Shown in pieces: positions 335 to 21,055 of a stretch of 64,000 bases of DNA. Source of the stretch: a virus; the IMG/VR virus record IMGVR_UViG_3300046674_000532; one strand, written 5' to 3'. The position numbers and the translations under genes were made by a program. The notes beneath the pieces were generated by a model. That model made no database searches. It saw only the letters and a list, made by a program, of their open reading frames with translations, and was not told where the DNA came from. Numbering within the stretch: the stretch's first letter is position 1; every line of letters starts with the position of its first letter.

Positions 335-367
335 ACCGTACCGTGCCAGGCATTGCACTGCAATGCC
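335..367 (-). promoter_or_regulatory. operator-promoter copy 1: palindrome GGCATTGCACTGCAATGCC over the -35
   Basis: Perfect 19-bp palindrome at 349..367. Its arm gives -35 TTGCAG (358..363), then a 17-nt spacer and -10 TACGGT (335..340), pointing at the gene starting at 296. Confidence 0.55.
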
Positions 368-387
368 TGACGCTGAACCGGGCACAG

Positions 388-417
388 AAAAGGGGCCCAA
401 CCCGAAGGCCAGACCCC
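388..417 (-). terminator. rho-independent-type terminator downstream of ssb
   Basis: Minus strand reads GGGGTCTGGCC-TTCG-GGTTGGGCCCC followed by TTTTCTG, about 20 nt after the ssb stop. Confidence 0.6.
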
Positions 418-436
418 TACGCCACACCCCACAAGA

Positions 437-964
437 TCAGAAAGGCGGCTCGTCCGAATACCCGCCATCCCCCGCACCCGCCCAAACCGACTGCCCGCCC
501 TGCTGCGCCGCCGCACCCGACGTCGCCCACGAATCCTCACGCCCCTCCCGCGACGACTCCTGACGCGCCTGCGCGTACGCCTGCTTACCGGCACCGCTCG
601 AGCCGGCCTTCGTCACCTTCGCCGTCGCCATCTTCAGCGACACAGCCACCTCGTCGGCCTCCAGCTCGTAGACCGTCCGCTTCACGCCCTCACGGTCCTC
701 GTACGACCGCTGCGACAGCCGCCCCTGGATGACGACCCGGCAGCCTTTCACCACCGACTCGGCCACGTGCTCGGCCTGCTGCCTCCACACCGACACCGGC
801 AAGAACAGGGTCTGCCCGTCCACCCAGGCCTGCTTCTCCCGGTCATAGGTCCGCGGTGTCGACGCCACCGTGAACTTCGCAACGCCCGCGCCAGACGGCG
901 TAAAACGCAGCTCAGGATCCGATGTCGCATTGCCAATCACCGTGATGACGGTTTCCCCACTCAT
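437..964 (-). CDS. ssb: single-stranded DNA-binding protein
   Basis: OB-fold SSB signature [27 protein letters not shown], Gly/Ala/Gln-rich linker and acidic C-terminal tail DEPPF. Internal ATG at 964 chosen (ATGA overlap with upstream gene). Confidence 0.9.
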
Positions 965-1890
965 GCCGCTTCCTCCATCTGGTTCTTCGTCAGGGTTCGT
1001 TCCCGCGGTACGTACACGCGCCGCCACACGCGCCGGCCGTCGGCGGCCGCGCGCTCCTTGATGCGCTCCCAGGTCCGCTCCGCGGCGTCCGGGTTCATGT
1101 CCAGGCGGGCAGCTATCTCCGCGGTGGTGTCGTTGGTCCACTCGAACAGGTGGGTCAGGACTTCCCGCCGGGCAGCCCGGTCGAGGATCACGGCCTCACC
1201 CATCAGCCAGCGCGCCGCCAGGTTCCCGCCCTCCGAGACGATCGGGTCGGCAGCATCCGTCTGAGGGACAGCCTGCGGGTCGTCGATCGTGTCGTCGTCC
1301 CACGCAAGCGGCCCATCCCAGCCCTGCCGTTGTGCGGCACGCCGAGTCCGGTCCGCCACCCATTCCTTGACCCCCTGGTCACACGGGTCAGCGTTCCACC
1401 AGGCCCCGTACACGTCCCTCACGGCGCGGGCTATGCGGGCGGTCACCTTCTCGCTGATCACGGCCTTCTGGAAGTAGCGGGAGGGGATCCCTGCCTTCCG
1501 TGCGATGGCAACCAGGTTGAAGCCGCGTACCTGGAGCGCCTGGAGACGGCGCCGGGTTCCGGTCGGATCGATGCGGGCCGCGTCAGGGAAGTTGTCCAAC
1601 TTGGGCCAGTAGGCGAGGAGGAGTTCCGCGGTCTCCGTATGAAACTTCTCGCTCGGCCCCCCTCCTTCCTGTGAACCCCACAGGAGATGGTCCAGGTAGT
1701 GGGCGCAGAGACCGAAGTGCTTCTCCAGGGCCCGGACCGGCATGCCAGCAGCACGTATCCGGTTGACATGGTCGCGTACGGGCTGCGCAGGCACGAACGG
1801 CTGCCACTCGCCCGCAGCGATGAGCTGTTCCCGGCGGCTCCGCCAGCGTGACCTTGCGACCTTCTGCGCGTAGGACGTCGTGGTGCTCAT
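961..1890 (-). CDS. hypothetical DNA-binding protein (HTH-like segments)
   Basis: Only the last 309 codons of ORF 961..3027 look protein-like. ATG at 1890 overlaps the upstream stop (ATGA). HTH-like segment [27 protein letters not shown]. Confidence 0.7.
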
Positions 1891-2564
1891 GCCGCCACCG
1901 CCAGCTCCGCCGCCTGCTCTGCGGCGCCCTGGACGTTCCACGCGCGGACGGCCTTGCCCAGGTAGTCCTCGCACACCTGCAAATAGGCGGCGATGTCCCG
2001 GTTCCCGACGCCCATCTCCCGCAGCTGGGTGACGACGTCCCGGGATTCGTCCCGCACGATCTCCCACAGGGCCCGGGTGTCGCCGTTGCCGCGGCGGGGC
2101 AGGATGCCGCCCTTGCCACCCGCCCACCACACCGCCAGACGGACGGTGACCGGCAACGCCAGGACGTCGTACTTCTGCAGCTCCACGACCATCTGCGCCG
2201 GCGTCAGACCGCGCTGCCGGAGCGGCATCATCCGCGACGACCACTCCGGGGACGCCAGCACCCGGGCCTGCCGCAGATCCGGATCCGCACCCAGGAGCGC
2301 CTCCACGCGCAGCGCACGCCGCTGCACCGTCGTCAGACCGCCGACGACACCCCACAGCATGTAACTGGACTGCTCGTACTCGAGCGCGTCGGACAGGCAC
2401 GTCGTCCTCACCGGGCAGCCACGGCAGATCCCCTGAACGCGCTTCTGCGTGCCGGGACTGTCGGAGAACATGGTCTCGGTGTCGACTCCCTGGCAGCCGG
2501 AGGAGTCCCGCCAGTCGATGCTGCGCGCGGCGCGTTTCCTGGCGTGGCGGGTCGGGGTGTTCAT
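1887..2564 (-). CDS. WhiB-like Fe-S transcription factor with ~130-aa C-terminal extension
   Basis: Four Cys in Wbl arrangement (CQGVD...CRGCPVRTTC) followed by the WGVVGGLT turn; the long extra C-terminal region is unassigned. Confidence 0.8.
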   Translation of the reverse strand: MNTPTRHARKRAARSIDWRDSSGCQGVDTETMFSDSPGTQKRVQGICRGCPVRTTCLSDALEYEQSSYMLWGVVGGLTTVQRRALRVEALLGADPDLRQARVLASPEWSSRMMPLRQRGLTPAQMVVELQKYDVLALPVTVRLAVWWAGGKGGILPRRGNGDTRALWEIVRDESRDVVTQLREMGVGNRDIAAYLQVCEDYLGKAVRAWNVQGAAEQAAELAVAA

Positions 2565-3163
2565 GAGGTGGCTCCGGGAAGGGTCGGCCAGACCGCCTTT
2601 TCGATGGCGGCCCGGTGGGTTTTGGGCATGTCAGTGATCGGGTGGCCGATCCAGTCGCGGCCGGCGGCCATGAGGACGACGGCGTCGGCGGCGTTGTCGT
2701 CGCCTCCGGTGGTCCAGGCGGGGAAGCGTCGGGAGACCTGGTCGATGACGGCTCCCTTGGCGGCGGTGCCCTTGCCGGTGGCGTAGAGAGCGCGCTGGTT
2801 GGGGGACAGCAGGCCGACCGGGATGCTGCGTCGGGTGAGGCGGTTGTAGAGCTGCCACCAGAGCCAGCCGCGTTCGTGGGCGCCTCCTCCGCTGCGGGAG
2901 ACGGCGGGGAGTTCCATGACGACGAGGTCGGGGCTGTCGATGGCGGCCAGGATGTTCTCGAGGAGGTTCTGCAGCTCGGTGAGGCGTTGCGGGTGTGGGA
3001 GTTGGGTGATGCCGGGGTCCTTGGCACGCTGCTTCTTGTAGCCGATGACTTCGCACCAGCCGCGGGTGGAGGCGAGGCCTGTGGCGGTGAGGCTGGGGTC
3101 GAGGCCGATGACGTGGGGGCCGGGGAGGGTGGTGGTGAGGGGGGCGGGGGCGGTGATGGTCAC
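2561..3163 (-). CDS. RuvC-like Holliday junction resolvase
   Basis: Acidic catalytic motifs VIGLDPSLTATG, VVMELPA and NAADAVVLMAAG. GTG at 3163 overlaps the upstream stop (GTGA); the Pro-rich N-terminal part of the ORF was discarded. Confidence 0.75.
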   Translation of the reverse strand: MTITAPAPLTTTLPGPHVIGLDPSLTATGLASTRGWCEVIGYKKQRAKDPGITQLPHPQRLTELQNLLENILAAIDSPDLVVMELPAVSRSGGGAHERGWLWWQLYNRLTRRSIPVGLLSPNQRALYATGKGTAAKGAVIDQVSRRFPAWTTGGDDNAADAVVLMAAGRDWIGHPITDMPKTHRAAIEKAVWPTLPGATS

Positions 3164-3369
3164 TGGGTGATCTCCTGGAGGGGTTGTCCGTGGCGCAGGT
3201 AGGTGGCGTGGCCGGGGCGGTGGCCGAGGTGGTGGAGGCCGCAGAATTCGCATTCGTACGGTCGGAGTCGGGGGCCGCCGATGCGTCGTATTTGGCGGGC
3301 TCGGCGTCGGGCGGTGGCGCGGTCGTAGAACCGGCTTTTACCGAGGCAGGCGACTTCGTACTCGGTCAC
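3160..3369 (-). CDS. small zinc-ribbon-like protein
   Basis: 69 aa, basic, with Cys/His cluster CEFCGLHHLGH; coupled on both sides by 4-nt overlaps. Confidence 0.6.
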   Translation of the reverse strand: MTEYEVACLGKSRFYDRATARRRARQIRRIGGPRLRPYECEFCGLHHLGHRPGHATYLRHGQPLQEITQ

Positions 3370-4379
3370 CCGGCGGGCACCGGGAAGGCGTCGTGGGTGC
3401 GCCCGTCGAGTTCGCGGCCGGCGTTCTTCTTGCCGACGCGGGCGAGTTCGATGCGGTGGCCGAGGTCATCGACCGGATCTCCAGCGAGGAGGGTGCCCTT
3501 GCTGGTGGCGCCGATGACGAGGTAGCCGGTGGGCGCGTACTCGCCCCACTGCTTGAAGAAGAACGGCACGTCTGCTTCGGCGCACTGGTCGCGCAGTGCC
3601 GTGGCCCACTGGGGTGCCATGGGGCGGGCGCTGCGGCCGGACTCGCCGCCGACGATGACCCAGTCGATGCCGTGGAACTTCTTGCAGCAGTCGCCCGCGT
3701 GGACGTAGGAGGTGTTCAGGCCGTGGCCTCGTTCGCTGCCCATGGTCCGGACGGCATGCTTGAGGTCGACGGGGCCGAGGAGCGGTTCACAGGACAGGAA
3801 GCGAACGGCGGCCGGGGTGTCCAGGAGTGCGGGGATGCGGAGGTCGGCTCGCTTCTGGTCCTCGACGCTGACGCCCAACCAGACGTTCCGGAGCGGCTTG
3901 GCGAAGTCACTCCACCACTGCGAGGTCTTCTGCTCCCGCTCGTACCGCGGCATCGGCGTCGCCTCGTCGTTGACGAGCACGGCCTGGGCCGCCTCGCATG
4001 CCAGGCGAAAGTCGCTGCTGTTGAGCAGGGCCCGCATGCGTCCGTGGCGCTTCGTCAGCACCTGGTACGTGTGCTGGGGGGTGAGCGCCATGACGGCGAA
4101 AACGCTGGCGATGTACTCGGTCGGAATGTCCTTGTGGAACAGGTCGGACATCGAGTTGACGAAGACGCGCTTCGGCTTCCGCCACCGCAGCGGAAGGGTC
4201 AGTCGTTCGGGGCGGAGGGTGACATCGAAGCCGGTCTCGAAGTGGTGGCCGGGGGTGCCGCGCCAGCGTTCGGCGAAGGTCTCGGCGTAGCAGTTGTCGC
4301 AGCCGGACGAGACTTTCTCGCAGCCGGTGACGACGTTCCAGGTGGCGTCCGTCCATTCGATCTTGCTGGTGTCAGCCAT
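3366..4379 (-). CDS. phage Gp37/Gp68 family protein (DUF5131)
   Basis: Characteristic N-terminus KIEWTDATWNVVTGCEKVSSGCDNCYAE. Confidence 0.85.
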   Translation of the reverse strand: MADTSKIEWTDATWNVVTGCEKVSSGCDNCYAETFAERWRGTPGHHFETGFDVTLRPERLTLPLRWRKPKRVFVNSMSDLFHKDIPTEYIASVFAVMALTPQHTYQVLTKRHGRMRALLNSSDFRLACEAAQAVLVNDEATPMPRYEREQKTSQWWSDFAKPLRNVWLGVSVEDQKRADLRIPALLDTPAAVRFLSCEPLLGPVDLKHAVRTMGSERGHGLNTSYVHAGDCCKKFHGIDWVIVGGESGRSARPMAPQWATALRDQCAEADVPFFFKQWGEYAPTGYLVIGATSKGTLLAGDPVDDLGHRIELARVGKKNAGRELDGRTHDAFPVPAG

Positions 4380-4596
4380 GGGTCTTCTCCGGGGAGGGTT
4401 CAGGGAGTCCGAGGGTCTGGGCGAGGGAGCGGCGGGCGTTGTGGTCGTTGGCGGGGTTGTTGATCCAGCGGGATACGAGGGCGAGGCGTGCTCGGAGGAT
4501 GGCGAGGTCGTTCTCGGCGCGGGCGAGCAGGTCGGGGTGCCTGGCCTGGAGTTGGCCAGCGAGGGTGGCGACGTAGGCCGGGTCTGCGGCGCTCAC
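4372..4596 (-). CDS. hypothetical protein
   Basis: 74-aa ORF in an operon context with overlapping starts/stops and high GC3. Confidence 0.6.
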   Translation of the reverse strand: MSAADPAYVATLAGQLQARHPDLLARAENDLAILRARLALVSRWINNPANDHNARRSLAQTLGLPEPSPEKTHG

Positions 4597-5180
4597 GGCT
4601 CCGGGTGCTCCTTCGCGGTCTCCTTGTCGGCGGTCCGGGCGGCGAGGCCATCGGCGATGGCGGCGAGGGGCAGGGGCTGGGTGGAGGTGGTGGTCTTCTT
4701 CGCGGCCTGGAGGGCTTCGGCGGCGGTCTGCTTGGGCGTGTAGTGGCGGGCGTGGCAGTGGGTGGCGCGGGCGGCGGCCATGCGGAGGTCGGCGGGGGTG
4801 TGGATGGGGTCGGCGTGGTGGGCGCCCTGGTTGCAGGGGGTGAAGGCGTGGAAGGGGGCGGCGGACTGGTCGTCGGGCGTGTAGGCGAGGACGGCGCCGG
4901 AGGGGAAGGCACGGGCTGCGGTGCCGTCGGGGCGCTGCTGCCAGTCGCGTACGAGCCCGTGGGGCAGGCCGTGAACTTTGGCGGCGTGGTAGGCGGCGAG
5001 TTGGAGTTCGGTGATGAACTCGGTGGTGCGGACGGGGAGCGGGGGCGTCGGCTTGACGAGGGAGAGGGCGGCCGCGGTCTTGCGCGGGGCGCGGGTGCGC
5101 TTGGCGGTCGGTTTCTTGGCCTGGGTCTTCTTCGCTGCGGTCTTGGCGGGGGTGCTGCTGGTGCGTGCCCTGGTGGTCAT
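4593..5180 (-). CDS. hypothetical protein with Lys/Ala-rich basic N-terminal tail
   Basis: 195 aa. N-terminus TPAKTAAKKTQAKKPTAKRTRAPRK resembles histone-like tails; the rest is His/Cys-containing and unassigned. Confidence 0.65.
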   Translation of the reverse strand: MTTRARTSSTPAKTAAKKTQAKKPTAKRTRAPRKTAAALSLVKPTPPLPVRTTEFITELQLAAYHAAKVHGLPHGLVRDWQQRPDGTAARAFPSGAVLAYTPDDQSAAPFHAFTPCNQGAHHADPIHTPADLRMAAARATHCHARHYTPKQTAAEALQAAKKTTTSTQPLPLAAIADGLAARTADKETAKEHPEP

Positions 5181-5305
5181 GCCTGTTCTCCGTCCTGCGG
5201 ATGCTGGTGCTGTTCGGTGGTGCTCCGGTGGTTGTGCTGGTGGTGGGTGATGAGGAGTGCGAAGGCGGTGAGGACGGCGGCGGCGATGCCGTCCGGCCAG
5301 GTCAC
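5177..5305 (-). CDS. possible 42-aa membrane peptide
   Basis: GTG at 5305 (GTGA overlap with protease stop) and stop overlapping the next ATG. Hydrophobic stretch IAAAVLTAFALLI. Below the ORF-track size cut-off as an independent ORF. Confidence 0.35.
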   Translation of the reverse strand: MTWPDGIAAAVLTAFALLITHHQHNHRSTTEQHQHPQDGEQA

Positions 5306-5997
5306 TGCGTGGATTCCTTGGCCGGCGTGAGGGTGAGCGGCCGCAGTTTGGTGCGGTTGGCGACGAGGTTCTTGAACCCGGTGGTGTCCTGCGGGGTGTA
5401 GTCGTCGGCGTAGGTGGCGGTGGTGTAGCCGCCCCAGGTGTCGCCGCGCATGAGGGGGGAGGGGTTGGTGGTCCAGGTGTTGGGGTGGGTGAGGCCGAAG
5501 GAGTGGCCGAGTTCGTGGGAGATGACCTTGCGGCGGTAGATCTCGTGCTGGCCGTTGACGATCTGGGTGGTCCAGTTGCCGAGGGCGATGCTGGCGCGGG
5601 AGCCGTCGGCGGCGCCGGTGGCGGTGTGGCACTGGGATGCGTTGGACCTGGTCACGGTGGACGTCAGCCGCATGATGATGGTGTGGCTGGTCGGGCAGGC
5701 CGTGGCGCCCTTGGAGATGGTGGTGGTGACGGTGACCGTCAGGCCGGTGGCTGCCTTCACGTGGGCGGCGGTCAGCTTCGCGTACGCGGTGAGCTTCGTC
5801 CGGGATGTGCTGTCGTAGAAGACGATCGTCCAGGGCTTGCTGTCGAGGTAGCGGACGCCGTTGCCGTCGCCGATGTTCCAGCCGGTTCCCTCGTAGACCT
5901 GGTAGAGGCCCGCGCCGTGGGCACGCCCGGGGGCGGCAACCACGGCGGAGGCGGCCAGGGTGAGGGCGAACGCCGCGCTGGCTATTCGGGTTCTCAT
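5302..5997 (-). CDS. secreted metzincin-type zinc metalloprotease
   Basis: Sec-type signal peptide MRTRIASAAFALTLAASAVVAAPGRAHG, zinc motif HELGHSFGLTH (HExxHxxGxxH) and a downstream Met (PLMRGD). ATG at 5997 overlaps the upstream stop. Confidence 0.8.
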   Translation of the reverse strand: MRTRIASAAFALTLAASAVVAAPGRAHGAGLYQVYEGTGWNIGDGNGVRYLDSKPWTIVFYDSTSRTKLTAYAKLTAAHVKAATGLTVTVTTTISKGATACPTSHTIIMRLTSTVTRSNASQCHTATGAADGSRASIALGNWTTQIVNGQHEIYRRKVISHELGHSFGLTHPNTWTTNPSPLMRGDTWGGYTTATYADDYTPQDTTGFKNLVANRTKLRPLTLTPAKESTQ

Positions 5998-6290: not shown

Positions 6291-6328
6291 GGCGGTGGGG
6301 ATCCGTTTCGTGTCAGGGGGCGGTGGGG

Positions 6329-6652: not shown

Positions 6653-6691
6653 GTGGTGCTCCCCTGCTGGCGGTTCGGTGGTGGTTGTGGT

Positions 6692-6733
6692 CCCGCCCGG
6701 CCGGGGCCTTGTGGTCATCCGCGGCCGGGCGGG
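6692..6733 (-). terminator. 12-bp-stem hairpin downstream of gene 6745..7110
   Basis: CCCGCCCGGCCG-18 nt-CGGCCGGGCGGG immediately after the stop at 6745. Confidence 0.5.
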
Positions 6734-6744
6734 GAATCTGTGGG

Positions 6745-7110
6745 TCAGTCGAGGTCCGGGGCGGGGTGCCGGTCGGCGCACAGGGGGCATTGGCGGATCG
6801 GCAGGTTGAAGCCGTTGGACTCTTCGATGGTTCGGGCGTCGGGGTCGGCGTTGTCGAAGACGGCCGGGCAGACGCAGGTGCACTTGCAGGGGAGGACTTC
6901 GCCGCCGTACTCGATGTGGAGGCCGGCGAGCGCGGCGACGCCGAGCATCAGGGAGTTGTATTCGCCTGCGTCGCTGGTGTCGTCGGCGCGCTGGAGGAGC
7001 TGGTCGAGGCGGTTCTGCTGGGTGGCGGTGAGGTCGCGGTAGTCGACGCTGGTGGGCGTCTTTCGGGCGTGCGTCATCAGGGCCACGGGGTCTCCTGGGG
7101 TGCAAGTCAC
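6745..7110 (-). CDS. hypothetical Cys-rich protein
   Basis: 121 aa with CKCTCVCP and CPLC clusters. Start is GTG 7110 or ATG 7077 (uncertain). Confidence 0.6.
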   Translation of the reverse strand: MTCTPGDPVALMTHARKTPTSVDYRDLTATQQNRLDQLLQRADDTSDAGEYNSLMLGVAALAGLHIEYGGEVLPCKCTCVCPAVFDNADPDARTIEESNGFNLPIRQCPLCADRHPAPDLD

Positions 7111-7155: not shown

Positions 7156-7188
7156 ACCGTACCCGTTCAGGCATGGCAGTGCAATGCC
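7156..7188 (-). promoter_or_regulatory. operator-promoter copy 2
   Basis: GGCATGGCAGTGCAATGCC (7170..7188, one mismatch). -35 TTGCAC (7179..7184), 17-nt spacer, -10 TACGGT (7156..7161); same geometry as copy 1. Confidence 0.55.
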
Positions 7189-7206: not shown

Positions 7207-7242
7207 GAAAGGCCCCGCCCCGGAAGTTCGGGTGCAGGGCCT
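7207..7242 (-). terminator. hairpin downstream of gene 7267..7494
   Basis: AGGCCC...GGGCCT outer stem with additional inner G-C/G-U pairs, 25 nt after the stop. Confidence 0.4.
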
Positions 7243-7266: not shown

Positions 7267-7494
7267 TCAGTCCGGGTACAGCTCGGCATGGACGTCGAGG
7301 AGGTCGCTCCACGACGCGTAGTCGGTCCGGCCGCACCGGATGATTTCCACGGGATCCGGCTTGTGGGCCAGGGCGTGCTTCTTCAGGGTCCGCGGGGCGA
7401 CCGGGCGGCCCGTCTCCTCGAGGAGGTCACAGGCCTCGCGGAGGCTGACGAGGTCCGACGTGGCGGCGTAGGGACTCGGGTTGGCGATGGCCAT
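7267..7494 (-). CDS. small putative DNA-binding protein
   Basis: 75 aa, RBS GGGAGCACCGCC-ATG. An HTH-like segment (LREACDLLEETGRPVAPRTLKKH) is only weakly supported. Confidence 0.55.
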   Translation of the reverse strand: MAIANPSPYAATSDLVSLREACDLLEETGRPVAPRTLKKHALAHKPDPVEIIRCGRTDYASWSDLLDVHAELYPD

Positions 7495-9556: not shown

Positions 9557-10660
9557 CTATACCGAGGGAACCTCCAGTCCAGCGCTGTCCGCGTACTCGT
9601 TCATCACACGCAGCGCCTTCACAAACGCACCCGTCGGCATCTTCCGGATGAGGTGCTGTGCAACGAAGTTCCCGTCGTCGTAGGGCAGGGTCCGCGGCGC
9701 AGGGTCCCCGCCGTCCTCGGCCTGCTGGACGGTCCGCGGTTCAGGGATCGGCTGCTCCGCCAGCACCACCGCGGGCGCATGGAGGTCCGGTGCGGTCTCC
9801 GGGACCGGAGCAGGGCCCGGCATCGGATCGGCACCTGCTGGCTTGGACTTGGAGACGTCCGGAATTATCACGCCGTGATATTCGGCGGGCCCGGCCGAGC
9901 GTTCCGGCGCCGGGTATGGCGCGGGTTGCGGCGAAGCCGACCGGGCGGCCGCCTGGCTTTGAGCGGCTTCGGCGCGCGCGTCGGCCTTCTCAACCTGCTC
10001 CTGCGGGGTCAGCTTCCCGAGGTTGCGGACGTGCTCCACCCTGCGTGCACCGGTGACGAGGTCCTTCTGCAGCTCGGGGGTGAGCTTCAGCAGGGACAGC
10101 TTGGTGGAGAGCGTGGCCTGCGGGATCCCGAGCCGTTTCGCGGCCTTGAGCTGGGACCCGTAGTGGTCCACCAACTGCTTGAGCGCGTGGGCCTCCTCGA
10201 GGTCCGTCATGTCGTCGCGGTGGTAATTCGCGATGAACGCGGCCTCGAGGAGGGTCTCGTCGGTGGCCAGCCGCGAGTTGTCGACCCTGACCGGGATGGT
10301 GGCCAGTCCGACGCGGCGGGAGGCCTCGAGGCGTCGGTGGCCGTCGATGACGACGTACTGGGCTCCGTCGTCGATGTCGTCGGCGCGGGCGGCCCGGTCA
10401 CGGAGATAGGCCTCTGTCGTTCCGACGACGATGGGCAGGATGATGCCGACCTGGCGGACGGACTCCACGGTCTCGTCGAGGTTGCGGAGGTGGTTGCGCG
10501 GGTTGTCGGGGTTGTCGCTGATCAGCGTGACGGGCAGTTCGGTGATGGCCGCGGTCGCTGCCGCGTCCCCTCCTATGGCGCTGTTGATGGCGTCGCGCCG
10601 TGGGCTGCGCCGGGCCGCGGCGAAGGCGGGCGCCGGGCCGAGGGTGTCGGCCTTGCTCAT
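9557..10660 (-). CDS. parB: ParB partition protein
   Basis: ParB-N box YVVIDGHRRLEASRRVG, HTH AAKRLGIPQATLSTKLSLLKL, 4-nt overlap with parA; carries one parS copy internally. Confidence 0.9.
   Translation of the reverse strand: MSKADTLGPAPAFAAARRSPRRDAINSAIGGDAAATAAITELPVTLISDNPDNPRNHLRNLDETVESVRQVGIILPIVVGTTEAYLRDRAARADDIDDGAQYVVIDGHRRLEASRRVGLATIPVRVDNSRLATDETLLEAAFIANYHRDDMTDLEEAHALKQLVDHYGSQLKAAKRLGIPQATLSTKLSLLKLTPELQKDLVTGARRVEHVRNLGKLTPQEQVEKADARAEAAQSQAAARSASPQPAPYPAPERSAGPAEYHGVIIPDVSKSKPAGADPMPGPAPVPETAPDLHAPAVVLAEQPIPEPRTVQQAEDGGDPAPRTLPYDDGNFVAQHLIRKMPTGAFVKALRVMNEYADSAGLEVPSV
9864..9882. repeat. parS-like palindrome copy 1 (inside parB)
   Basis: ATTATCAC-GCC-GTGATATT, an AT-rich 8-3-8 inverted repeat in a ~70% GC background. 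Confidence 0.7.
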
Positions 10661-11820
10661 CGGGTGGCCCCCTTCGCGACCTGCCGCATGGCCTCCGCCT
10701 GGTCGGACAGGGGTGCGTACGACAGCAGCGGCATCCGCTTGCGGACCGCTTCCCGCTGTTCCTTCAGATCACCGATGACGGCCAGGACTCTCGGGTCACC
10801 GATGGCCTTCCAGCTATCCAGGGAGGAGGTGGCGACGTAACCGCGGCGCGAGTCGTACAAATTGACGACCAGGCCGAGGTAGTCGACGTCCAGGCTGAGG
10901 TCTTCGCACAGGGCTTCGATCTGCTGGTCGAGCATGCTGTACGCGGTGGCGGAGGAGTCCTCGGCGAGGACGGGAATGATGACGCCGGACTTGCCCTTGG
11001 CCTCGTTGCGGCGGCGGCGCGCGTAGTAGAGGGCGGCGTCCATGGCGATGCCGAGGCTGGGCGGGCAGTCCACGACGATGACGTCGTAGTCGGCCTCGAG
11101 GGGACGAAGTGCCATCTCCAGGGCGACTTCCTTCTGGAAGCCTCGCTTGTTCGCGGACAGGACGGCGATCCTCGAGTCGAGGAGGAATCCGTCGAAGCAG
11201 GCGGGCAGTACGTGCAGTCGCTTCTCGAACCGCGGATCGTCTATGACCACGACCAGGTCGCGGAGGTCTCCCTTGTCCTCGCCGCACATGTGGGAGACGA
11301 GGCTGTCGTGGTCGGGTGCGATCTGCAGGACACCGAGTTGCTCGCTGAGGTGGCCTTGCGGGTCGTAGTCGACGAGCAGGACGCGCTTGCCCTGCTCGGC
11401 GTACGCCTGGGCGACGCCGGCGGAGATGGCGGTCTTGCCGACGCCGCCCTTCTGGTTGCAGACGACCTTGCGTTCGGCTTCTTCGTCCTGGGCGCCGTGC
11501 TGCGGGGAAGGGTTGGCGTCCAGCCACATCCGGACCGACTGCGCGAGGCCCTGGGTGTAGGAGACGGAGCGTTCGGTGCAGGCGTCCTTGAACGCGTCGT
11601 ACTGGCCGGACGGGAGCCATGTGGAGAACGAGCGGGCGCCGGCCGTGTCGATGTCCGGGCTGATGCCGGGTTCGGCGCGCCATTGGGCGATGCCCGCGGT
11701 GACGGCGTCCTGGATGTCCAGGCCGAGCTCGGCGGCGCGGACCTTGAGTGCTTGTTGGAGCGCCGAGGGCAGCTTCGACGCTACCTTTTCCCGGTCTCCT
11801 TGGAGATATGGAGAGGCCAT
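10657..11820 (-). CDS. parA: ParA partition ATPase with ~125-aa N-terminal extension (type Ia-like)
   Basis: Deviant Walker A CNQKGGVGKTAIS, LLVDYDPQG, VIVVDCPPS. The N-terminal extra domain is typical of autoregulating ParA/SopA. Confidence 0.9.
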   Translation of the reverse strand: MASPYLQGDREKVASKLPSALQQALKVRAAELGLDIQDAVTAGIAQWRAEPGISPDIDTAGARSFSTWLPSGQYDAFKDACTERSVSYTQGLAQSVRMWLDANPSPQHGAQDEEAERKVVCNQKGGVGKTAISAGVAQAYAEQGKRVLLVDYDPQGHLSEQLGVLQIAPDHDSLVSHMCGEDKGDLRDLVVVIDDPRFEKRLHVLPACFDGFLLDSRIAVLSANKRGFQKEVALEMALRPLEADYDVIVVDCPPSLGIAMDAALYYARRRRNEAKGKSGVIIPVLAEDSSATAYSMLDQQIEALCEDLSLDVDYLGLVVNLYDSRRGYVATSSLDSWKAIGDPRVLAVIGDLKEQREAVRKRMPLLSYAPLSDQAEAMRQVAKGATR

Positions 11821-11906
11821 GGCGTCACCTTACTGACTCTCCTGTCGCTCCTGTCACCCGGTTCGCCGTTCCTGACACGGTTTCATCCTTCCGGTGAGGT
11901 ACCGGG

Positions 11907-11925
11907 ATTATCACGGCGTGATAAT
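11907..11925. repeat. parS-like palindrome copy 2 (upstream of parA)
   Basis: ATTATCAC-GGC-GTGATAAT, perfect 8-bp arms. Confidence 0.7.
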
Positions 11926-11964
11926 TCGCCGGGGTCCAAGACGATCCGGCGCCGGGAAGCCGTG

Positions 11965-11983
11965 ATTATCACGCCGTGATATT
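11965..11983. repeat. parS-like palindrome copy 3
   Basis: ATTATCAC-GCC-GTGATATT; overlaps the last codons of small gene 11969..12100. Confidence 0.7.
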
Positions 11984-12100
11984 TGCCGGGTCCTCGAGGA
12001 CGTCGTCCTCGTCGCCCTGGTCGTACGGTCCGTCGACGTACACCGGCTCCCGGAACAGGTCCTCGTACGCCGGCTTCCGCGGTGTGGCGGTCTGTGTCAT
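11969..12100 (-). CDS. 43-aa acidic protein
   Basis: MTQTATPRKPAYEDLFREPVYVDGPYDQGDEDDVLEDPANITA; its ATG overlaps the upstream stop (ATGA). Confidence 0.45.
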   Translation of the reverse strand: MTQTATPRKPAYEDLFREPVYVDGPYDQGDEDDVLEDPANITA

Positions 12101-13400: not shown

Positions 13401-13422
13401 AACGTCTCCCGGGGGGCGGTTT

Positions 13423-13440
13423 GGTTTACCGCGGTAAACC
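13423..13440. promoter_or_regulatory. perfect 18-bp palindrome GGTTTACCGCGGTAAACC
   Basis: Lies in the 72-nt gap between the DUF2493 gene and gene 12354..13400, about 22 nt upstream of the ATG at 13400. Confidence 0.45.
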
Positions 13441-13472
13441 GTCTCGCAGATCCGGCGAACCCTTCCCTCCGC

Positions 13473-15490: not shown

Positions 15491-15934
15491 TCACTCGTTC
15501 TCCTTCACTGGTCGGATCTTGTTCGTCCGTCGGGCCTCCAACTTGGAAACGCCGTAACGGACTTCATCGGCACGATCGCAGGCGGCCAGGATGGACATCG
15601 CCAGTTCGCGAGCCGTGGTGGTGGGGACAGCCATGAAGTCTTCCGCGACCATGGCGTCCGGTGTGGAGATGAAGACACAGTCGGCGTCGTCGGGGAGGTC
15701 CGTCGCTCGGACCAACCAGCCGTCCCGCTCCCGCCGGTAGAAGTGGTCGTAGACCTTCCTGGGCATCGGGGCGGACACTGACCACTCACGTCCCGGCATG
15801 GGGTGAGGGCGCTGGTGGACAACGCTGGGTCGGGGCTTCTCCGCGGTGTGGGCCAGGGCAAGGATCTCTGAAAGCTGCTGGCGCAGGTCTCCGAGAGTCA
15901 CCTCAGCGGCCGACTGCTCGGCCGGGCTGCTCAT
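15491..15934 (-). CDS. hypothetical protein
   Basis: ATG at 15934 (MSSPAEQSAAEVTLGDLRQQ...), 147 aa. Confidence 0.6.
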   Translation of the reverse strand: MSSPAEQSAAEVTLGDLRQQLSEILALAHTAEKPRPSVVHQRPHPMPGREWSVSAPMPRKVYDHFYRRERDGWLVRATDLPDDADCVFISTPDAMVAEDFMAVPTTTARELAMSILAACDRADEVRYGVSKLEARRTNKIRPVKENE

Positions 15935-16262
15935 GCTGCTGAGGGGGTAGTGGTGACAGGGCCCGATCGCGCCAGCGGTGTGATGTTCACGCCGGGATCG
16001 CGGGTCCACCTGTCTACGGGGTCACGGCCCCGGGTACTCTGCTCCATGTCGGCACCTTCGTCGCTGTTGAGTGTCGGCCCGGCCCCGCACCGGTTGTTGA
16101 CGCAACCGGGATACTGCGGGGCCGTTCCAATGTCTTGGGCGCCCTGTCCGTCCAGACCACGTTCTGACTGGACGTCTGGGGCTAGGCGCAGCCTATCGGT
16201 TGGGCGTGTCATCTGTCCCCTGCCTCCCCATACGTGTCGTCTGTACGACCAATCACACCGGC

Positions 16263-16742
16263 TCAGTGCTCCCGAGCGTCCTCGTCGTCCGCCGGGTGCC
16301 ACTCCGGGGCACGCTCCGCGACCTGCCGGGACCGGCCCGCCATCCCACCCATCGCCCGGAACCCCGCCTGCGCCAACTCGCCCTGCAACCGGGCCAGCCG
16401 GTCCCGGTTGAAGCGGGGCGCCGCCATCAACTGCCCGGCCCGCACCCCCACCACCAGCGCCCGGTCCCAGATCTCCTGCACGTCCGCCGGATCCATCCCC
16501 GGGAACAAGTCCCGCGGCAGTTTCCGCGGCGTTCCCGCCGTGTCCAACTGGGCGGCCGCGATCAGCCCGGCCAGATGCTGGCCCGTCGATGCGGCCCGCC
16601 CCGCCAGGACGAGGTCGCACATCGCGTCCTGGCCGACGTCGGCCGACCACCCGGCCTTGACGACCCCGCCAGCGGCCGGACCGCCCACGGCCCCCGTCCC
16701 GATGGAGGCGGGCAGGGAGGTGGAGTCAGGGGTGTTGCTCAT
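16263..16742 (-). CDS. hypothetical protein
   Basis: ATG at 16742 overlaps the upstream stop (ATGA); MSNTPDSTSLPASIGTG..., 159 aa. Confidence 0.6.
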   Translation of the reverse strand: MSNTPDSTSLPASIGTGAVGGPAAGGVVKAGWSADVGQDAMCDLVLAGRAASTGQHLAGLIAAAQLDTAGTPRKLPRDLFPGMDPADVQEIWDRALVVGVRAGQLMAAPRFNRDRLARLQGELAQAGFRAMGGMAGRSRQVAERAPEWHPADDEDAREH

Positions 16743-17665
16743 GCTGCAGCCTCCAGCGGCGTAGCGGGGAACAGGGAACACACATCGGCGACCTGGGCCA
16801 GGTCGGCTTCCATCTCGGCGAGCAGCAGATCCAACTGCCCGGGTACCTCCACGAACCGCTCCCGCAACGACAGCCGGCGCACCCGCTCCGTACGCCGCCC
16901 CGGCACACGCTGCTCGCCCTCGTCGACGTCGGCGACCGGCAGCCGGGCCAGGAGCCGCTCGAACTCCACCGCCCACAACAGCAACTGCCCGTTCGCCTCC
17001 ACGGTGTGCGTCTTCACCCCCGACGGACACGCCAGCACCGACCCGTCATCCGCCACCACCAGGCCAGCGTCGACCAGGCCACGCTCCACCGCCGCGGCGA
17101 GCAGCTCCATCCGCGACGCCTCACGCGACAGGCCCATCAGCGTGACAATCGCCGACCGCTGCCAACCCGCCGTCCGCACATCCATCCGCGCCGCCGCAGC
17201 CACCCGATACGGATCCGCGTGCCCGGCCAGCGCAGCCAGAACGGCCAGCTTCTGCTCCGTCCGCAACTTCGCGTCCGCGGCCGCACCCATCACCTCGTGA
17301 CGGTGCCGGATGAACGCCGTGTGCCGCTCCGTCTGCGTCTCCGCGCCCCACACCCCGTGCGGCTCCGCCAACCGCGCCACATCCCCGTCCATCACCACGG
17401 TGTTGGCGTACGCGGCGCACTGCACCATCACCGGACAGTCCAGACACACTTCGACCGCCGCGGCCTCCCGCGCCCGGCGTACCGGCTGCCTCTCCCCACC
17501 ATCCACATCCGGAGCGAAATGCGCCCCCAGCGGCAGGTCCAGGTTCCCCGCCATCCGCGACGGCAGCACCGGATCCGGCGCACACCCCCGATACCGGAAC
17601 CGCGGATGCGTCTCCCACGCCGCACGCGCCACCGCCACACTCACCTGCTCACCGGTGCCCGTCAT
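16739..17665 (-). CDS. WhiB-like domain protein with long C-terminal region (possible HTH)
   Basis: Cys pattern C(APD)...VCLDCPVMVQC followed by GVWGAET. Later segment WQRSAIVTLMGLSREASRMELLAAAVERGLV is HTH-like. Confidence 0.7.
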   Translation of the reverse strand: MTGTGEQVSVAVARAAWETHPRFRYRGCAPDPVLPSRMAGNLDLPLGAHFAPDVDGGERQPVRRAREAAAVEVCLDCPVMVQCAAYANTVVMDGDVARLAEPHGVWGAETQTERHTAFIRHRHEVMGAAADAKLRTEQKLAVLAALAGHADPYRVAAAARMDVRTAGWQRSAIVTLMGLSREASRMELLAAAVERGLVDAGLVVADDGSVLACPSGVKTHTVEANGQLLLWAVEFERLLARLPVADVDEGEQRVPGRRTERVRRLSLRERFVEVPGQLDLLLAEMEADLAQVADVCSLFPATPLEAAA

Positions 17666-17964
17666 GCCGGACCCCCTTCCGAACTCGGATCACCCGAACC
17701 ACTCGAACGCGCCTGCGCGGCCAACGCCGCATCCACCACCCGATCCGCCTCCGCCAGCACCGCCCGCTGAGCCAGCACGGCATTCATCCGGGCGCGGAAC
17801 TCCTCGAGGTCCCGGTCCCGGCAGCCCTCCGTCAGCCGGGCCGCGGCCTTCTCCCGGTCCAGCAGCCGGTACAGGCGCCGCAGCCGGCGCACTGTGCAGA
17901 TGGCGACGGCCGCCGCGGCGAGTGCCGCGACGGCCAGAACAATCAGTAGAAACACGGCACTCAC
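17662..17964 (-). CDS. small N-terminally membrane-anchored protein
   Basis: TM segment VFLLIVLAVAALAAAAVAI followed by a charged helical tail. Confidence 0.6.
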   Translation of the reverse strand: MSAVFLLIVLAVAALAAAAVAICTVRRLRRLYRLLDREKAAARLTEGCRDRDLEEFRARMNAVLAQRAVLAEADRVVDAALAAQARSSGSGDPSSEGGPA

Positions 17965-18000
17965 CTTTCTCCAGGGAAGGGGACGGCCACCGGACCCCGG

Positions 18001-18294
18001 TCAGGGCCGGTACCAGGCGTTCGTCTTCACCACGCTGTCCAGCGCCCGCAGGCCTGCCAGCTCGGCCGCATCCGCCCGCGCCCCGACCTCCGCGTCCGCC
18101 ACCGCCTCGAGCGCCTCCGCATCACGGACCGCCTGCTCGGCCGTCGACCGCCGCCGCCACGCCCGCAGCTCCACCACGTTGTCCGGCACACTCGGACGGC
18201 GCTTCTCCCACCACAAGGCCACCGGCACCCCGAGCAGGGCCAAGAGCAGGATCGCCGGAATCACCCAGCGCTGGGCGTCAGAGAAAGGGGGCAT
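18001..18294 (-). CDS. small N-terminally membrane-anchored protein
   Basis: TM segment WVIPAILLLALLGVPVALWW followed by a charged helical tail. Confidence 0.6.
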   Translation of the reverse strand: MPPFSDAQRWVIPAILLLALLGVPVALWWEKRRPSVPDNVVELRAWRRRSTAEQAVRDAEALEAVADAEVGARADAAELAGLRALDSVVKTNAWYRP

Positions 18295-18368
18295 GACGGA
18301 ACTCCGTTCGGCGACAGCCGGGATGAGGTGGGTGGTGGTGCGGCGGCCCGCCGGAGCGGGCCGGATGG

Positions 18369-18999
18369 TCAGGCGGCGGAAATGACCTCGTCCGCGCCAT
18401 TCATCGGGATACCGAACCCGGCAGCGACAACATGCTGGAGGACAACCGGAGTACGGGAGAAACAGGCAACAGGCGGGACGGCGGTCAGTTCTCTTCTTGA
18501 TCCGGCTTGGGGGCCAGCCGAGATACAGCCGAAAGGGATATGCAGGACCTCGTGCGAGGAGTCGTTCCCTCTACTGGGCAGCTCGTCCTTCGGTACGGGG
18601 CGGTGATCACTGCTCGCCGCCCTCGGCGCCTGCGGCCAGGAGGCCGGCAAGGCTCTGGAGGTGGGCGGCCGGGCCGAGGTCGGTGTAGAAGGAGCCTGCG
18701 GGCAGCGGGGGCAACTGCGCGGGCACGGCCTGGTGCACGAGCGGCTGGTCCGCCAGACCGAGCCCCTTACCGGCGCGCGACCACGCCTGGCACGGCGGAG
18801 ACCAGATCTGCTTCTTCGACCGCCCCTTGAATGGAGCGGTCGGGTACTGGGCGACGTCGCACTGGATAGTCAGGTGGCCCGCCGCCGCGCGGGTCTTGCA
18901 CGCTGCGGTGTCCCACTCCAGCCCCACATCGCGAAGGCCAAGCAGCCGCAGCCCTTCCGACCAGCCACCAGGCCCTGCGAACCCGTCGAGGATCGTCAT
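18369..18999 (-). pseudogene. decayed DNA (cytosine-5) methyltransferase
   Basis: ORF 18607..18999 carries motif I (ILDGFAGPGGWSEG) and motif IV (SPPCQAWS), then stops after 130 aa. A second frame (18369..18650) retains a motif-X-like TAVPPVA. ENV, QxRxR and the target-recognition region are missing. Total span of 210 codons is too short, and GC3 drops in 18369..18600. Confidence 0.55.
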
Positions 19000-19955
19000 C
19001 AGGCGGCGCTCCTCTCTGCGGCGTTGGCCTGGGCGGCCTGTTCCTTCAACTGGGCGATGCGGCGCGTCAGGAGGTCCTCAACGCGCACGTCCATCTCGCC
19101 GACCTTCACCGTCTCGTCCAGAAGGCCGTGCTTCCTGGCGTCGGCAAGGTTCTGCTCGCACGACAGACGGTTCTTCCACCCGGCGTTGATTTTCTCCTTG
19201 AGGCCTTCCAGCGTGGTCCCCGCAGCCTGCTCCTGCCGGTGCACGTCCTCCCGCTGCTCTTCCGTAGGACTGGCAGGCACGGCATCTACCGCTTCCTGCT
19301 TCGCGGCCGCTACATCCGGCTCGGCCTCCACCTTGTCGTCCTTGAACTCGGCCTCCTTCGGCGCCTTCCAGTACGGAAGCGACGACTGCACCACCGGGGA
19401 CAGACGGCCCTTGTTGTACAGGGACAGGCCGAACTGATCACCCAGGTTGGTGGCCGCCCGCTTCAAGGCCTGCGAGTCGGCGGTCTTCAGCGCCAGGTCG
19501 TGAGCATCGGCCCGGGACGGCTGGTTCGTGGCGTCCCCGGTGGCGATGCCGTGCCAGTGGCCCAGCTCGATCCCGTCCACCTTCACCGACAGGCGAACCG
19601 CGACGCGGTAGATGACCGTCCACGCATCGAAGGGGTTCCCGTACGGGCGACCGTTCTTGTCCTTCTTCTGGTGGTCCGGGATGCAGGTCTCGGCGATCAG
19701 CGTCGACTCCAGCAGGTCGGTGTCGTGCCCGCCGAACCCGAAGATGCGGATCAGGTAGCGCCGAATGTCCCAGGCCTCCATGTGCGCGAAGCCCTTGCCG
19801 TCCGAACCCACCCGGTCCGGGTCAACGGGGCGCAGCAGCTGGGCGATCTGGAGGTCGGACAGGGTGCCCAGGCGGCGGGCCGGGGCCTGGTTTTGGGTGT
19901 GCGAGGTGGGGCCCTCCGCCGTCGTGCTGGCGAGGGCCTCGGTGGCCGGGGCCAT
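18999..19955 (-). CDS. Rad52/Sak-family single-strand annealing protein
   Basis: GFAHMEAWDIRRYLIRIFGFGGH and ALKRAATNLGDQFGLSLY match the Rad52-fold annealase core; charged coiled C-terminal half. Confidence 0.75.
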   Translation of the reverse strand: MAPATEALASTTAEGPTSHTQNQAPARRLGTLSDLQIAQLLRPVDPDRVGSDGKGFAHMEAWDIRRYLIRIFGFGGHDTDLLESTLIAETCIPDHQKKDKNGRPYGNPFDAWTVIYRVAVRLSVKVDGIELGHWHGIATGDATNQPSRADAHDLALKTADSQALKRAATNLGDQFGLSLYNKGRLSPVVQSSLPYWKAPKEAEFKDDKVEAEPDVAAAKQEAVDAVPASPTEEQREDVHRQEQAAGTTLEGLKEKINAGWKNRLSCEQNLADARKHGLLDETVKVGEMDVRVEDLLTRRIAQLKEQAAQANAAERSAA

Positions 19956-20038
19956 GAGGTCTCTCCTATGAGGTTGTGCGAAGTACGGGGCGCGGGGCCC
20001 GGCTGGTGTCGGCGTCCAGGCCGACCCCGCGCAGACGG

Positions 20039-20932
20039 CTATGCGGCGGGCTCGCCGAGGCGGTCCTTCAGGATCGCCACCGCGATCGAACCGGGGAACA
20101 TCTTGTAATCCAGGGCCTCAGATACCCGCGGCTCCACGTCACGGAGCTGCTCGAGCAGGTCGGCGTTCACCCGGACCGGCAGCCACGTCGCATCGTCCAG
20201 CGACCGGCTACCCGGCGCCGCCTTCGACGGACGCGGCGGCAGCCACTCCCCGCCGGCCAGCGAACGGATCCCGTCCTCCAGAACCTTCTGCAGCGCCACG
20301 CCCTGACGGCCGGACTCGGCAATGAGGTGCTGCTCCAGGGGCTTCAGGACCCGCAGCTTCAGCATCTCCACACCGACCGGACTGTCGACGCCCAGCTCCT
20401 CCGTCATCCACAGCAGAGCGATACCGCCCTCCGTGATGGGATAGCCGGCCTCCTCCGACAGCGACGCCAGCCGCTCCTGCACCTGCGCCCGCAGGTCCGC
20501 GTCGATGTTGACGGTCATCACCGCGCGGCCGGGGCGCCGTTCACCCTTCAGCCAGCGCTTCGTCTTACGCTGCGGCGGCAGCCACCTGCCCTCCAGCACC
20601 AGTCGGTAGCCGTCCTCGACCACATCGGTCAGCAGCACACCCAGCTCGTCCGCAGCCGCCCTCAGGGCGTCCCGCATATCCGTGTTCGTGGTGATGGTCA
20701 GCGGCGACTTGCCGGGCCCGTCAGCGGGAGCGGCGTCACGCAGCAGCGTCCACCCGCCCCGCACCAGGACCGCCCGGACATCGGCAGCCGAGTCGGGATG
20801 GCCGGCGTCCTCCAGACGCTGGGCGGCGAGGGTCAGACGGTCGTGGATGGGACGGGCCACGTGGAGCGGTCCTCTCGGATGGCACCTCCCCGGCTCCTTG
20901 CGGGCCGGCGGGTGCGTGGGGGCGTTGGCCAC
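20039..20932 (-). CDS. hypothetical protein with an internal duplication
   Basis: GTG at 20932 with GGAGG RBS. Two related segments: VVEDGYRLVLEGRWLPPQR and VLEDGIRSLAGGEWLPPRP. Confidence 0.6.
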   Translation of the reverse strand: MANAPTHPPARKEPGRCHPRGPLHVARPIHDRLTLAAQRLEDAGHPDSAADVRAVLVRGGWTLLRDAAPADGPGKSPLTITTNTDMRDALRAAADELGVLLTDVVEDGYRLVLEGRWLPPQRKTKRWLKGERRPGRAVMTVNIDADLRAQVQERLASLSEEAGYPITEGGIALLWMTEELGVDSPVGVEMLKLRVLKPLEQHLIAESGRQGVALQKVLEDGIRSLAGGEWLPPRPSKAAPGSRSLDDATWLPVRVNADLLEQLRDVEPRVSEALDYKMFPGSIAVAILKDRLGEPAA

Positions 20933-20949
20933 GCCAGTTTCCTCCAAAC

Positions 20950-20963
20950 GGCAGTTCAATGCC
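20950..20963. promoter_or_regulatory. truncated copy of the 19-bp operator (GGCAGTTCAATGCC)
   Basis: Matches the right 14 nt of the 7170 copy with one change; sits 5 nt from the RBS of gene 20039..20932. Confidence 0.4.
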
Positions 20964-21007
20964 ATGCCCGGAGGCTCTGGCAGTGGGGCGGCACCCCAAC
21001 AACCCCA

Positions 21008-21055
21008 ACGATACTGCCACAGGCATTGCAATGCAATGCCTCACGGGTCTATGGT
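21008..21055. promoter_or_regulatory. divergent promoter pair sharing operator copy 3
   Basis: Perfect palindrome GGCATTGCAATGCAATGCC (21022..21040). Rightward: TTGCAA-18 nt-TATGGT (21050..21055). Leftward: TTGCAT-17 nt-TATCGT (21008..21013). Confidence 0.55.

Follow-up and report, generated by a model that had tools for sequence, protein, structure and literature searches.

Repressors that act at many dispersed operators and ribbon-helix-helix (RHH) repressors that act at divergent promoters are already textbook arrangements, and single-chain proteins with tandem RHH motifs are also known. We analysed IMG/VR virus record IMGVR_UViG_3300046674_000532, a 64-kb stretch of DNA (hereafter the window) that makes up roughly two thirds of a Streptomyces phage-plasmid of the pZL12-like kind, and describe here a palindrome built into the -35 region of several of its predicted early promoters, together with a candidate regulator, the product of the minus-strand gene at 20039-20932 (L1). 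In the immI region of phage P22, as in the model proposed for L1, RHH proteins (Arc and Mnt) recognise a two-fold symmetric operator of about 20 bp, with two RHH dimers on half-sites roughly one helical turn apart; the operator lies between divergent promoters, both of which it overlaps, and the regulator controls its own operon. Arc and Mnt are, however, small monomers that form dimers and tetramers, whereas L1 is predicted to carry four RHH motifs per chain (two in some relatives), adds a basic N-terminal tail and a helical domain, and would control at least six promoters rather than one locus. No sequence similarity between L1 and Arc or Mnt was detectable. The closest folds in the PDB are those of TraY and VirC2, to our knowledge the two known single-chain tandem RHH proteins, in which the fused motifs form a pseudo-dimer that binds DNA. 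These are two-motif accessory proteins of relaxosome and T-DNA processing, whereas L1 has four motifs and lies in the early region of a phage-plasmid beside presumed promoter operators.

The C1 operators of P1, the inverted repeats of the phiC31 repressor and the stoperators of cluster A mycobacteriophages are all cases of one phage regulator serving many dispersed early-promoter sites; phiC31 infects Streptomyces too, and P1 shares the phage-plasmid lifestyle. Their regulators are of the helix-turn-helix (HTH) type or unrelated, the sites have other sequences and are placed differently with respect to the promoter, and we know of none among them that is a tandem-RHH chain. Omega of pSM19035 and Reg576 of pLS20, like the proposed L1, are autoregulated plasmid RHH repressors that act on several operons through repeated promoter sites, and their targets are copy number, partition and establishment genes such as ssb and methylases (PMC6294495). 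Omega binds arrays of 7-bp heptads, whereas L1 would bind one palindrome within the -35 region, and the omega and Reg576 plasmids are conjugative elements of Firmicutes rather than phage-plasmids. By analogy, autoregulation by L1 would resemble that of omega and Reg576 as much as that of a classical immunity repressor. In the searchable literature we found no description of the regulatory circuit of a pZL12-like phage-plasmid, and neither these operator sequences nor a four-motif single-chain RHH regulator.

The whole window was searched for GGCATTGCANTGCAATGCC with up to three mismatches, using 100 dinucleotide-preserving shuffles as the control. It was found that the window contains four sites, compared with none in the shuffles. 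These sites, with the promoter elements, terminators and genes that surround them, are:

21022-21040, both arms: O1, a perfect 19-bp palindrome GGCATTGCAATGCAATGCC, each arm of which supplies the TTGCAN -35 of one predicted divergent promoter
20950-20968, minus-strand reading GGCATGGCATTGAACTGCC: O2, a degenerate full-length 19-mer with 3 mismatches, around +33 to +51 on the transcript predicted for P_L and 3 nt upstream of the L1 ribosome-binding site (RBS) GGAGGA
7170-7188: copy with 1 mismatch, overlapping the -35 TTGCAC (minus strand) of a predicted internal leftward promoter
349-367: perfect copy, overlapping the -35 TTGCAG (minus strand) of a predicted promoter downstream of ssb
21050-21055, plus strand: -10 box TATGGT of P_R, 18 nt past TTGCAA, predicted to drive the WYL operon
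21008-21013, minus strand: -10 box TATCGT of P_L, 17 nt past TTGCAT, predicted to drive L1 and the early, replication and partition arm
7156-7161, minus strand: -10 box TACGGT of the internal promoter
335-340, minus strand: -10 box TACGGT of the promoter at the 349 copy
391-418, minus strand: intrinsic terminator after ssb, a 12-bp stem followed by a T run, just upstream of the 349 copy
7213-7225, minus strand: intrinsic terminator of the preceding transcription unit, just before the 7170 operator and promoter
1-296, minus strand: first gene of the 349 unit, cut by the window edge
6745-7086, minus strand: first gene of the 7170 unit, encoding a 113-aa Cys-rich protein kept in relatives
20941-20946, minus strand: L1 RBS GGAGGA, 7 nt before the GTG at 20932
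20039-20932, minus strand: L1, 297 aa; in the structure model a disordered, basic N-terminal tail precedes a domain of three helices and four RHH motifs
21086-21535, plus strand: WYL-domain protein, 149 aa, first gene of P_R, with a conserved acidic C-terminal motif DDADYRPR

An earlier sequence-only reading of this DNA had picked out the perfect copies at 349-367 and 21022-21040, the one-mismatch copy at 7170-7188 and the four -10 boxes at the positions listed; the mismatch search returned the same three copies, and the boxes were read from the sequence as claimed. It had also described a truncated copy at 20950. A copy is indeed present there, but it is full-length and degenerate rather than truncated, and its position is conserved in relatives. 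Likewise, the 7170 copy does face the first gene of a unit, but the start of that gene, previously placed at 7110, moves to the GTG at 7086, which lies behind an AGGAGA RBS and yields a conserved N-terminus (MA(L/V)MTHAR). In all four predicted promoters the palindrome ends 8-9 nt from the -10 box, i.e. TTGCAN-17/18 nt-TAnnGT, and the TTGCAN-17/18-TA(C/T)(G/C)GT arrangement at the four sites may represent a sigma-70 (HrdB-type) promoter, for which hexamers 16-18 nt apart are expected, although each pair of boxes fits the E. coli consensus at only 6 of 12 positions. The sequence GGCATGAGAAAG adjoining the 7213-7225 terminator is kept in relatives. No operator copy was found within the structural region (24-64 kb) by either the motif or the relaxed palindrome scan.

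We compared six sequenced plasmids at three positions (the divergent intergenic region, the site after the ssb terminator and the region upstream of the 6745-7086 homologue) and some 38 further IMG/VR loci fetched via the WYL gene. All three positions carry a TTGC-N3/4-GCAA palindrome with symmetric flanks in six of six plasmids, with the TAnnGT box at equal distance. Absence of the motif from orthologous intergenic sites, named beforehand as the observation that would speak against an operator overlapping the -35 of several promoters, was thus not what we found, and that part of the earlier proposal is largely borne out. Altogether, about 50 relatives have a palindrome of this family at these positions. 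The O1 palindrome is present in about 38 IMG/VR loci and the distal copy, 14 kb away, in 15; at the position equivalent to 7170, every relative has a palindrome of its own type. At O1, a TAnnGT-like hexamer lies 17-18 nt past TTGCNN in 31 of 32 loci scored rightward and 32 of 32 leftward, where our own estimate from base composition gives a chance expectation of about 6% per side. O2 is kept in nearly all loci, in the locus's own operator type, 53-83 bp left of O1, typically with one arm weakened to GCCAT. The adjacent TCCTCC, which is the GGAGGA RBS of the leftward gene (L1), is separated from O2 by 4-6 nt in most relatives and by 3 nt in the window. In the complete relative CP075614.1, two extra copies lie beyond what corresponds to the left edge of the window, both at rightward promoters with TACGGT or TACGAT boxes, and the full regulon would therefore comprise at least six promoters plus O2.

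The sequence of the operator varies among plasmids (CTATTGCGTACGCAATAG, GTATTGCGCGCGCAATAG, CCATGGCGCCGCAATGG and CTCTTGCGTATGCAAGAG, for example; ATTGCGTACGCAAT is a type heterologous to that of the window), and the changes hit both arms together so that symmetry is kept (compare CTATTGCGTACGCAATAG, GTATTGCGCGCGCAATAC, CTCTTGCGTATGCAAGAG and GGCATTGCANTGCAATGCC). The copies at 349 and 7170 are unidirectional, with a terminator and no -10 box on the other side, yet they retain full two-fold symmetry; the symmetry is thus not a by-product of back-to-back promoters. Using 15 genomes that have both O1 and the copy 14 kb away, with loci paired by contig name, we compared the two copies within and between genomes. 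The mean number of mismatches is 4.2 within genomes, as against 7.7 when the copies come from different ones (permutation p = 0.0002). That symmetric sites so far apart change in concert implies a cognate DNA-binding protein that is dimeric or pseudo-dimeric and encoded by the element, in agreement with the single dimeric regulator proposed from the window alone, and such change would argue against a host factor.

L1 has no significant match in Pfam, NCBIfam or PHROGs. An AlphaFold model built on an alignment of 25 homologues (pLDDT, the per-residue confidence, 84.6) shows four beta-alpha-alpha units with strands at 75-83, 136-144, 188-196 and 248-256. In Foldseek searches of the PDB, the best matches were chains E, F and G of the F-plasmid relaxosome, which are about 105-120 residues long (probability 1.0, E 0.02, target template-modelling score about 0.6); the output names only the complex, and we take these chains to be TraY. 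VirC2 was a much weaker match (E 1.7, probability 0.35), and sequence identity to the TraY and VirC2 fold matches is 16-20%. In a profile search of PDB sequences the best match was to the RHH domain of the antitoxin VapB26 (E 0.011). At the level of prediction, L1 therefore has the fold of the RHH (MetJ/Arc) superfamily, and the model suggests two RHH pseudo-dimers covalently linked in one chain. An internal duplication is evident, since in L1 the second half can be aligned to the first half of a relative that has two motifs. Among relatives, some have two motifs (about 150-200 aa) and others four (about 260-350 aa). The family is small (233 clusters at 50% identity in a set of 1.84 billion representative proteins), unannotated and fast-evolving.

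The L1 RBS is followed in relatives by GTG, TTG or ATG after 7-8 nt and then, in frame, by (M)A(N/I)APT(H/R)PP. Gene callers and the annotation pipeline PGAP place the start about 24 codons downstream of this conserved GGAGGA-N7-GTG (window 20860-20932; also in the loci L002, L124 and L127). The segment skipped in this way encodes a conserved basic peptide rich in Arg and Pro, APT(H/R)PP...PP(R/K)GP(R), which has 100% G+C at third codon positions and is in frame in all relatives checked; in sequence it resembles an AT-hook-like arm.

The protein encoded at 21086-21535 contains a WYL domain (Pfam PF13280, 25.3 bits against a cut-off of 21.8) that starts at residue 12, and no HTH was found by Pfam, NCBIfam, PHROGs or predicted secondary structure. 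It consists of a WYL beta-barrel and the conserved acidic tail only, although its structure model is of low confidence (pLDDT 50). As it lacks the N-terminal HTH, it should not be filed as a WYL transcription factor of the PafBC, DriD, BrxR or CapW type. We regard it as a co-regulated target, possibly a sensor, and not as the operator binder. In one relative (L126 32729-33201, NZ_CP109172.1) the WYL gene is degenerate or frame-shifted, reaching only 33.9 bits against the WYL profile, and this in a frame unlike that of the annotated ORF, while L1 and all operator copies are intact. This locus was considered as a clean case of an operator without WYL but, as a frame-shifted remnant is retained, counts as weak evidence.

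To compare candidate regulators, protein distances were correlated with operator distances. L1 distance correlates with O1 distance (Mantel r = 0.45, p = 0.0003, n = 35), while WYL distance does not (r = 0.01). The same holds for the distal operator, which at 14 kb is not tightly linked to L1, with r = 0.40 for L1 (p = 0.004, n = 15) and r = -0.07 for WYL (n = 15). The genes for L1 and WYL are 150 bp apart, and the distances of the two proteins are uncorrelated (r = 0.01), indicating that recombination has uncoupled them. When every conserved gene up to 10 kb from O1 was scanned, the values were:

L1: r 0.56, p ≤ 0.001
WhiB-like: r 0.15, p 0.006
Rep-like: r 0.07, p 0.13
290-aa protein: r 0.07, p 0.15
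WYL: r 0.03, p 0.21
integrase: r 0.01, p 0.43

Judged by these sequence distances, L1 is the only conserved gene within 10 kb that strongly co-varies with the operators. In 37 of 39 loci the operator spacing class (N3 or N4) agrees with that of the locus whose L1 is most closely related; for the most closely related WYL protein the figure is 28 of 38. In two loci, L130 and L131, the WYL proteins are 93% identical and yet the operators belong to different spacing classes. Within the RHH pair, the sequence of the first beta-strand sorts by operator type:

strand N(L/M/V)A(L/I)(W/F/S)MNK: operator CCCCTTGC...GCAATGG
strand A(F/V)AIPI(D/E): operator GTATTGCGCGCGCAATAG
strand NLPLT(I/M): operator GCATTGCA(A/G)TGCAATGC

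The second strand is mostly a conserved NLNVR, which in sequence appears to parallel the invariant TTGC/GCAA core. The palindromes accordingly occupy orthologous positions, overlap core promoter elements and evolve in concert with a candidate regulator, as is expected of repressor operators. The sequence-only reading had placed its emphasis on the WYL gene, had put forward the products of 21086-21535, 58505-58864 and 7267-7494 as binders, and had treated 20039-20932 only as a target. We find support for none of the three; WYL divergence in particular is uncorrelated with operator divergence, and the best candidate is 20039-20932 itself.

We infer that L1 binds the -35-embedded palindromes and thereby represses transcription from the predicted starts of its own operon, of the WYL operon and at the internal early promoters; we put this at slightly better than an even chance. 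The early genes would then form several units, each read from a host-sigma-type promoter (TTGCNN, 17-18 nt, TAnnGT) whose -35 sits inside a 17-19-bp palindrome of the form TTGC-N3/4-GCAA with symmetric flanks. L1 would insert one RHH beta-sheet per half-site, the half-site centres being 9-10 bp apart as for Arc and Mnt tetramers; a protein with four motifs would bind as one chain, and a relative with two would do so as a dimer. O1 would span approximately -39 to -21 of both P_L and P_R and, because it overlaps both -35 boxes, one L1 on O1 could shut the two promoters at once. L1 bound at O2 would act as a roadblock in the P_L leader beside the L1 RBS, tightening autoregulation; because O2 follows the predicted start and adjoins the RBS, its position suits repression and not activation. 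The copies at 7170 and 349, each past a terminator, would re-impose control on the downstream early units. Since L1 is the first gene of P_L, the outcome would be negative autoregulation of the whole early arm, which holds genes for recombination, a methylase, WhiB, replication and ssb. By analogy, the position of L1 next to its own putative operators is what is typically seen for autoregulated RHH repressors. The term immunity repressor, suggested earlier, is not established: the candidate regulator is the first gene of its own operon, in an arm with replication and partition genes, and homeostatic autoregulation therefore fits at least as well as an immunity switch. A more elaborate version is improbable in our estimation, and we mention it as speculation. 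In this version L1 would be a tetramer-in-one-chain RHH repressor, and the divergent stand-alone WYL protein would sense single-stranded DNA or a nucleotide signal, with its acidic DDADY tail acting on the basic N-terminal arm of L1. The result would be a split WYL-RHH switch between plasmid maintenance and lytic growth, independent of LexA and RecA.

Several observations weigh against repression by L1 as just described. In a scan for the Escherichia coli-type consensus (TTGACA/TATAAT), each of the four promoters matched 6 of 12 positions and none was called, so the promoter call rests on conservation. Identical or near-identical operators occur with L1 proteins that are only 38-50% identical. 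In the locus L117, for example, the identical 19-mer is accompanied by an L1 with two RHH motifs that is 38% identical to L1 of the window and differs in its beta-strand residues. As like operators pair with very divergent L1 proteins, no simple recognition code is evident. The covariation with O1 could in part be linkage, O1 being the operator closest to L1; the correlation with the distal operator counters this, yet comes from 15 genomes only. The O1-O2 distance (53-83 bp) shows no helical phasing with the DNA, and cooperative looping is accordingly not indicated. RHH proteins such as TraY or AmrZ can, moreover, also activate transcription.

The palindromes might be bound by another regulator of the element, encoded more than 10 kb away or outside the window, with L1 covarying through linkage or ancestry. 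The covariation scan covered only genes within 10 kb of O1, the low identity (38-50%) among L1 proteins that share an operator would be readily accommodated, and the protein at 58388-58864, with weak HTH matches and a match to phrog_597 'DNA binding protein', would be one candidate. Against this stand the predicted DNA-binding fold of L1, its position as the single outlier of the scan and its covariation with a copy 14 kb away, when L1 and WYL at 150 bp are already uncoupled (r = 0.01-0.03); we consider such a distant regulator unlikely, while giving it some weight. That no dedicated regulator exists, and that the symmetry reflects back-to-back -35 boxes or a DNA-structural, parS or host-factor site, seems to us the least probable of the explanations. 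Both arms of O1 do act as -35 boxes in the predicted promoters, but the 349 and 7170 copies are fully symmetric although unidirectional (no TAnnnT, and a terminator opposite), and a host factor would not explain why the sequence is uniform within a plasmid and different between plasmids. ParB was rejected as the binder, as the parAB operon has its own, different palindromes and one relative (L128) has a different partition module with the same operator family.

The sign of regulation is the issue in a further alternative, in which L1 or another factor is an activator or sigma adaptor that recruits RNA polymerase to weak promoters, in the manner of TraY at P_Y or of PafBC at RecA-NDp promoters. 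TraY, the structural neighbour of L1, activates the operon to which it belongs, and the match of the promoters to the canonical consensus at only 6 of 12 positions would fit a need for help. The -10 box follows the site after 8-11 nt (8-9 nt for the copies of the window), a geometry that resembles that of the PafBC -26 element. However, TTGCNN-17/18-TAnnGT fits the relaxed Streptomyces housekeeping pattern without a helper, the site is centred near -30 and so overlaps rather than flanks the -35 contact, and O2 lies downstream of the predicted start beside the RBS in nearly all relatives, which is typical of repression. Activation is therefore, in our judgement, a minority possibility. Binding by the WYL protein is very unlikely. 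Its gene is directly downstream of O1 in almost every relative, and homologues are annotated as 'YafY-type transcriptional regulator', but the protein has no HTH or other recognisable domain for binding double-stranded DNA. Furthermore, it is 65-93% conserved while operators differ, as illustrated by L130 and L131, and its correlation with operator distance is 0.01-0.03 at O1 and -0.07 at the distal copy. The relative with a degenerate WYL gene beside an intact L1 and operators points in the same direction. Repression by L1 remains the reading that we prefer.

The window was assembled from rhizosphere metagenomes, has a G+C content of 69% and carries nearly all of its genes on the minus strand. 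The sequencing runs found to contain it are all of metagenomic DNA, and a search for RNA runs gave none. It covers the early and structural part of the element, whose complete form is about 90 kb; proteins of the window are also found on contigs of up to 97 kb. It shares 75-83% DNA identity (in patches) and synteny with Streptomyces plasmids of 88-92 kb, including pSAM1 of S. ambofaciens and pSLE1 of S. leeuwenhoekii. Plasmid-phage ZL12 is a more distant relative, its WYL protein being 36% identical to that of the window. pSLE1 has been described as syntenic with pZL12 (PMC4487206). The combination of partition and replication genes with siphovirus structural genes, a size of about 85-95 kb and synteny with pZL12, pSLE1 and pSAM1 places the element among the pZL12-like phage-plasmids, which are common in Streptomyces, where matching plasmid and viral contigs number in the hundreds. 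Recognised genes include:

437-868: ssb
about 9.6-11.8 kb: parA and parB, with parA at 10657-11820 on the minus strand

Other genes of the window encode a Rad52-type recombinase, a WhiB-like protein, a SLOG protein, a tyrosine recombinase and a large terminase, and there is a long structural block; Rfam and tRNA scans of the window gave no match. The 113-aa Cys-rich protein at 6745-7086 has the pattern C-x-C-x(1-6)-C-x-C ... Q-C-x2-C-x3-H and occurs in all relatives. It has no family match and may be zinc-binding.

Other palindromes were observed in the window. A pair of the form ATTATCACGGCGTGATAAT (11907-11926 and 11963-11982) lies just upstream of parA; within 11903-11984 the two copies read GATTATCACGGCGTGATAATT and GATTATCACGCCGTGATATTT and are 58 bp apart. 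These are probably the operator of the partition operon or a centromere-like site, unrelated to the L1 operator. The 20-bp palindromes CCGGTTGTTGACGCAACCGG (16090-16109) and TGGTTTACCGCGGTAAACCG (13422-13441), found by the relaxed scan in the region of the replication genes, do not belong to the operator family and may represent origin or terminator elements. Beside the terminase gene, the minus-strand late region is interrupted by a small island of plus-strand genes (57694-59337), 58388-58864 among them. No L1-type operator was found near this island, and 58388-58864 may encode a late-gene regulator or a small-terminase-like protein.

Matches to the exact 19-mer GGCATTGCANTGCAATGCC among genome contigs come mostly from Nodosilinea and Leptolyngbya; only three are actinobacterial (L071, L101 and L117). 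In Nodosilinea/Leptolyngbya-type cyanobacteria it is a highly repeated palindrome, found in dozens of contigs and several times per genome, and seems to be an unrelated genome-wide repeat. The only viral contig with the exact motif (L001) is of low G+C and unrelated. Neither L071 nor L101 has a homologue of L1 or WYL close by, and both were rejected as regulon members, appearing to be chance or unrelated copies. In L101, from the chromosome of Streptomyces sp. NPDC050546, a single exact 19-mer (998-1016) sits inside a longer palindrome, CTGTGGGCATTGCAATGCAATGCCCACAG, with no L1 or WYL homologue within 8 kb. In L117 (2380-2640), on a contig labelled Leifsonia sp. NPDC058292, the identical 19-mer lies between L1 and WYL homologues and has its own O2 and RBS; either the family reaches outside Streptomyces or the contig label is doubtful.

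A single promoter-operator module used at least six times provides a concrete proposed circuit for the early region of pZL12-like phage-plasmids, with a testable candidate regulator from an unannotated and fast-evolving family. Across the relatives, variants of operator and regulator that have co-evolved form a natural series, in which the spacing of the half-sites changes as well. This series could serve studies of RHH specificity and of incompatibility or immunity among phage-plasmids, and could provide orthogonal repressor-promoter pairs for Streptomyces engineering.

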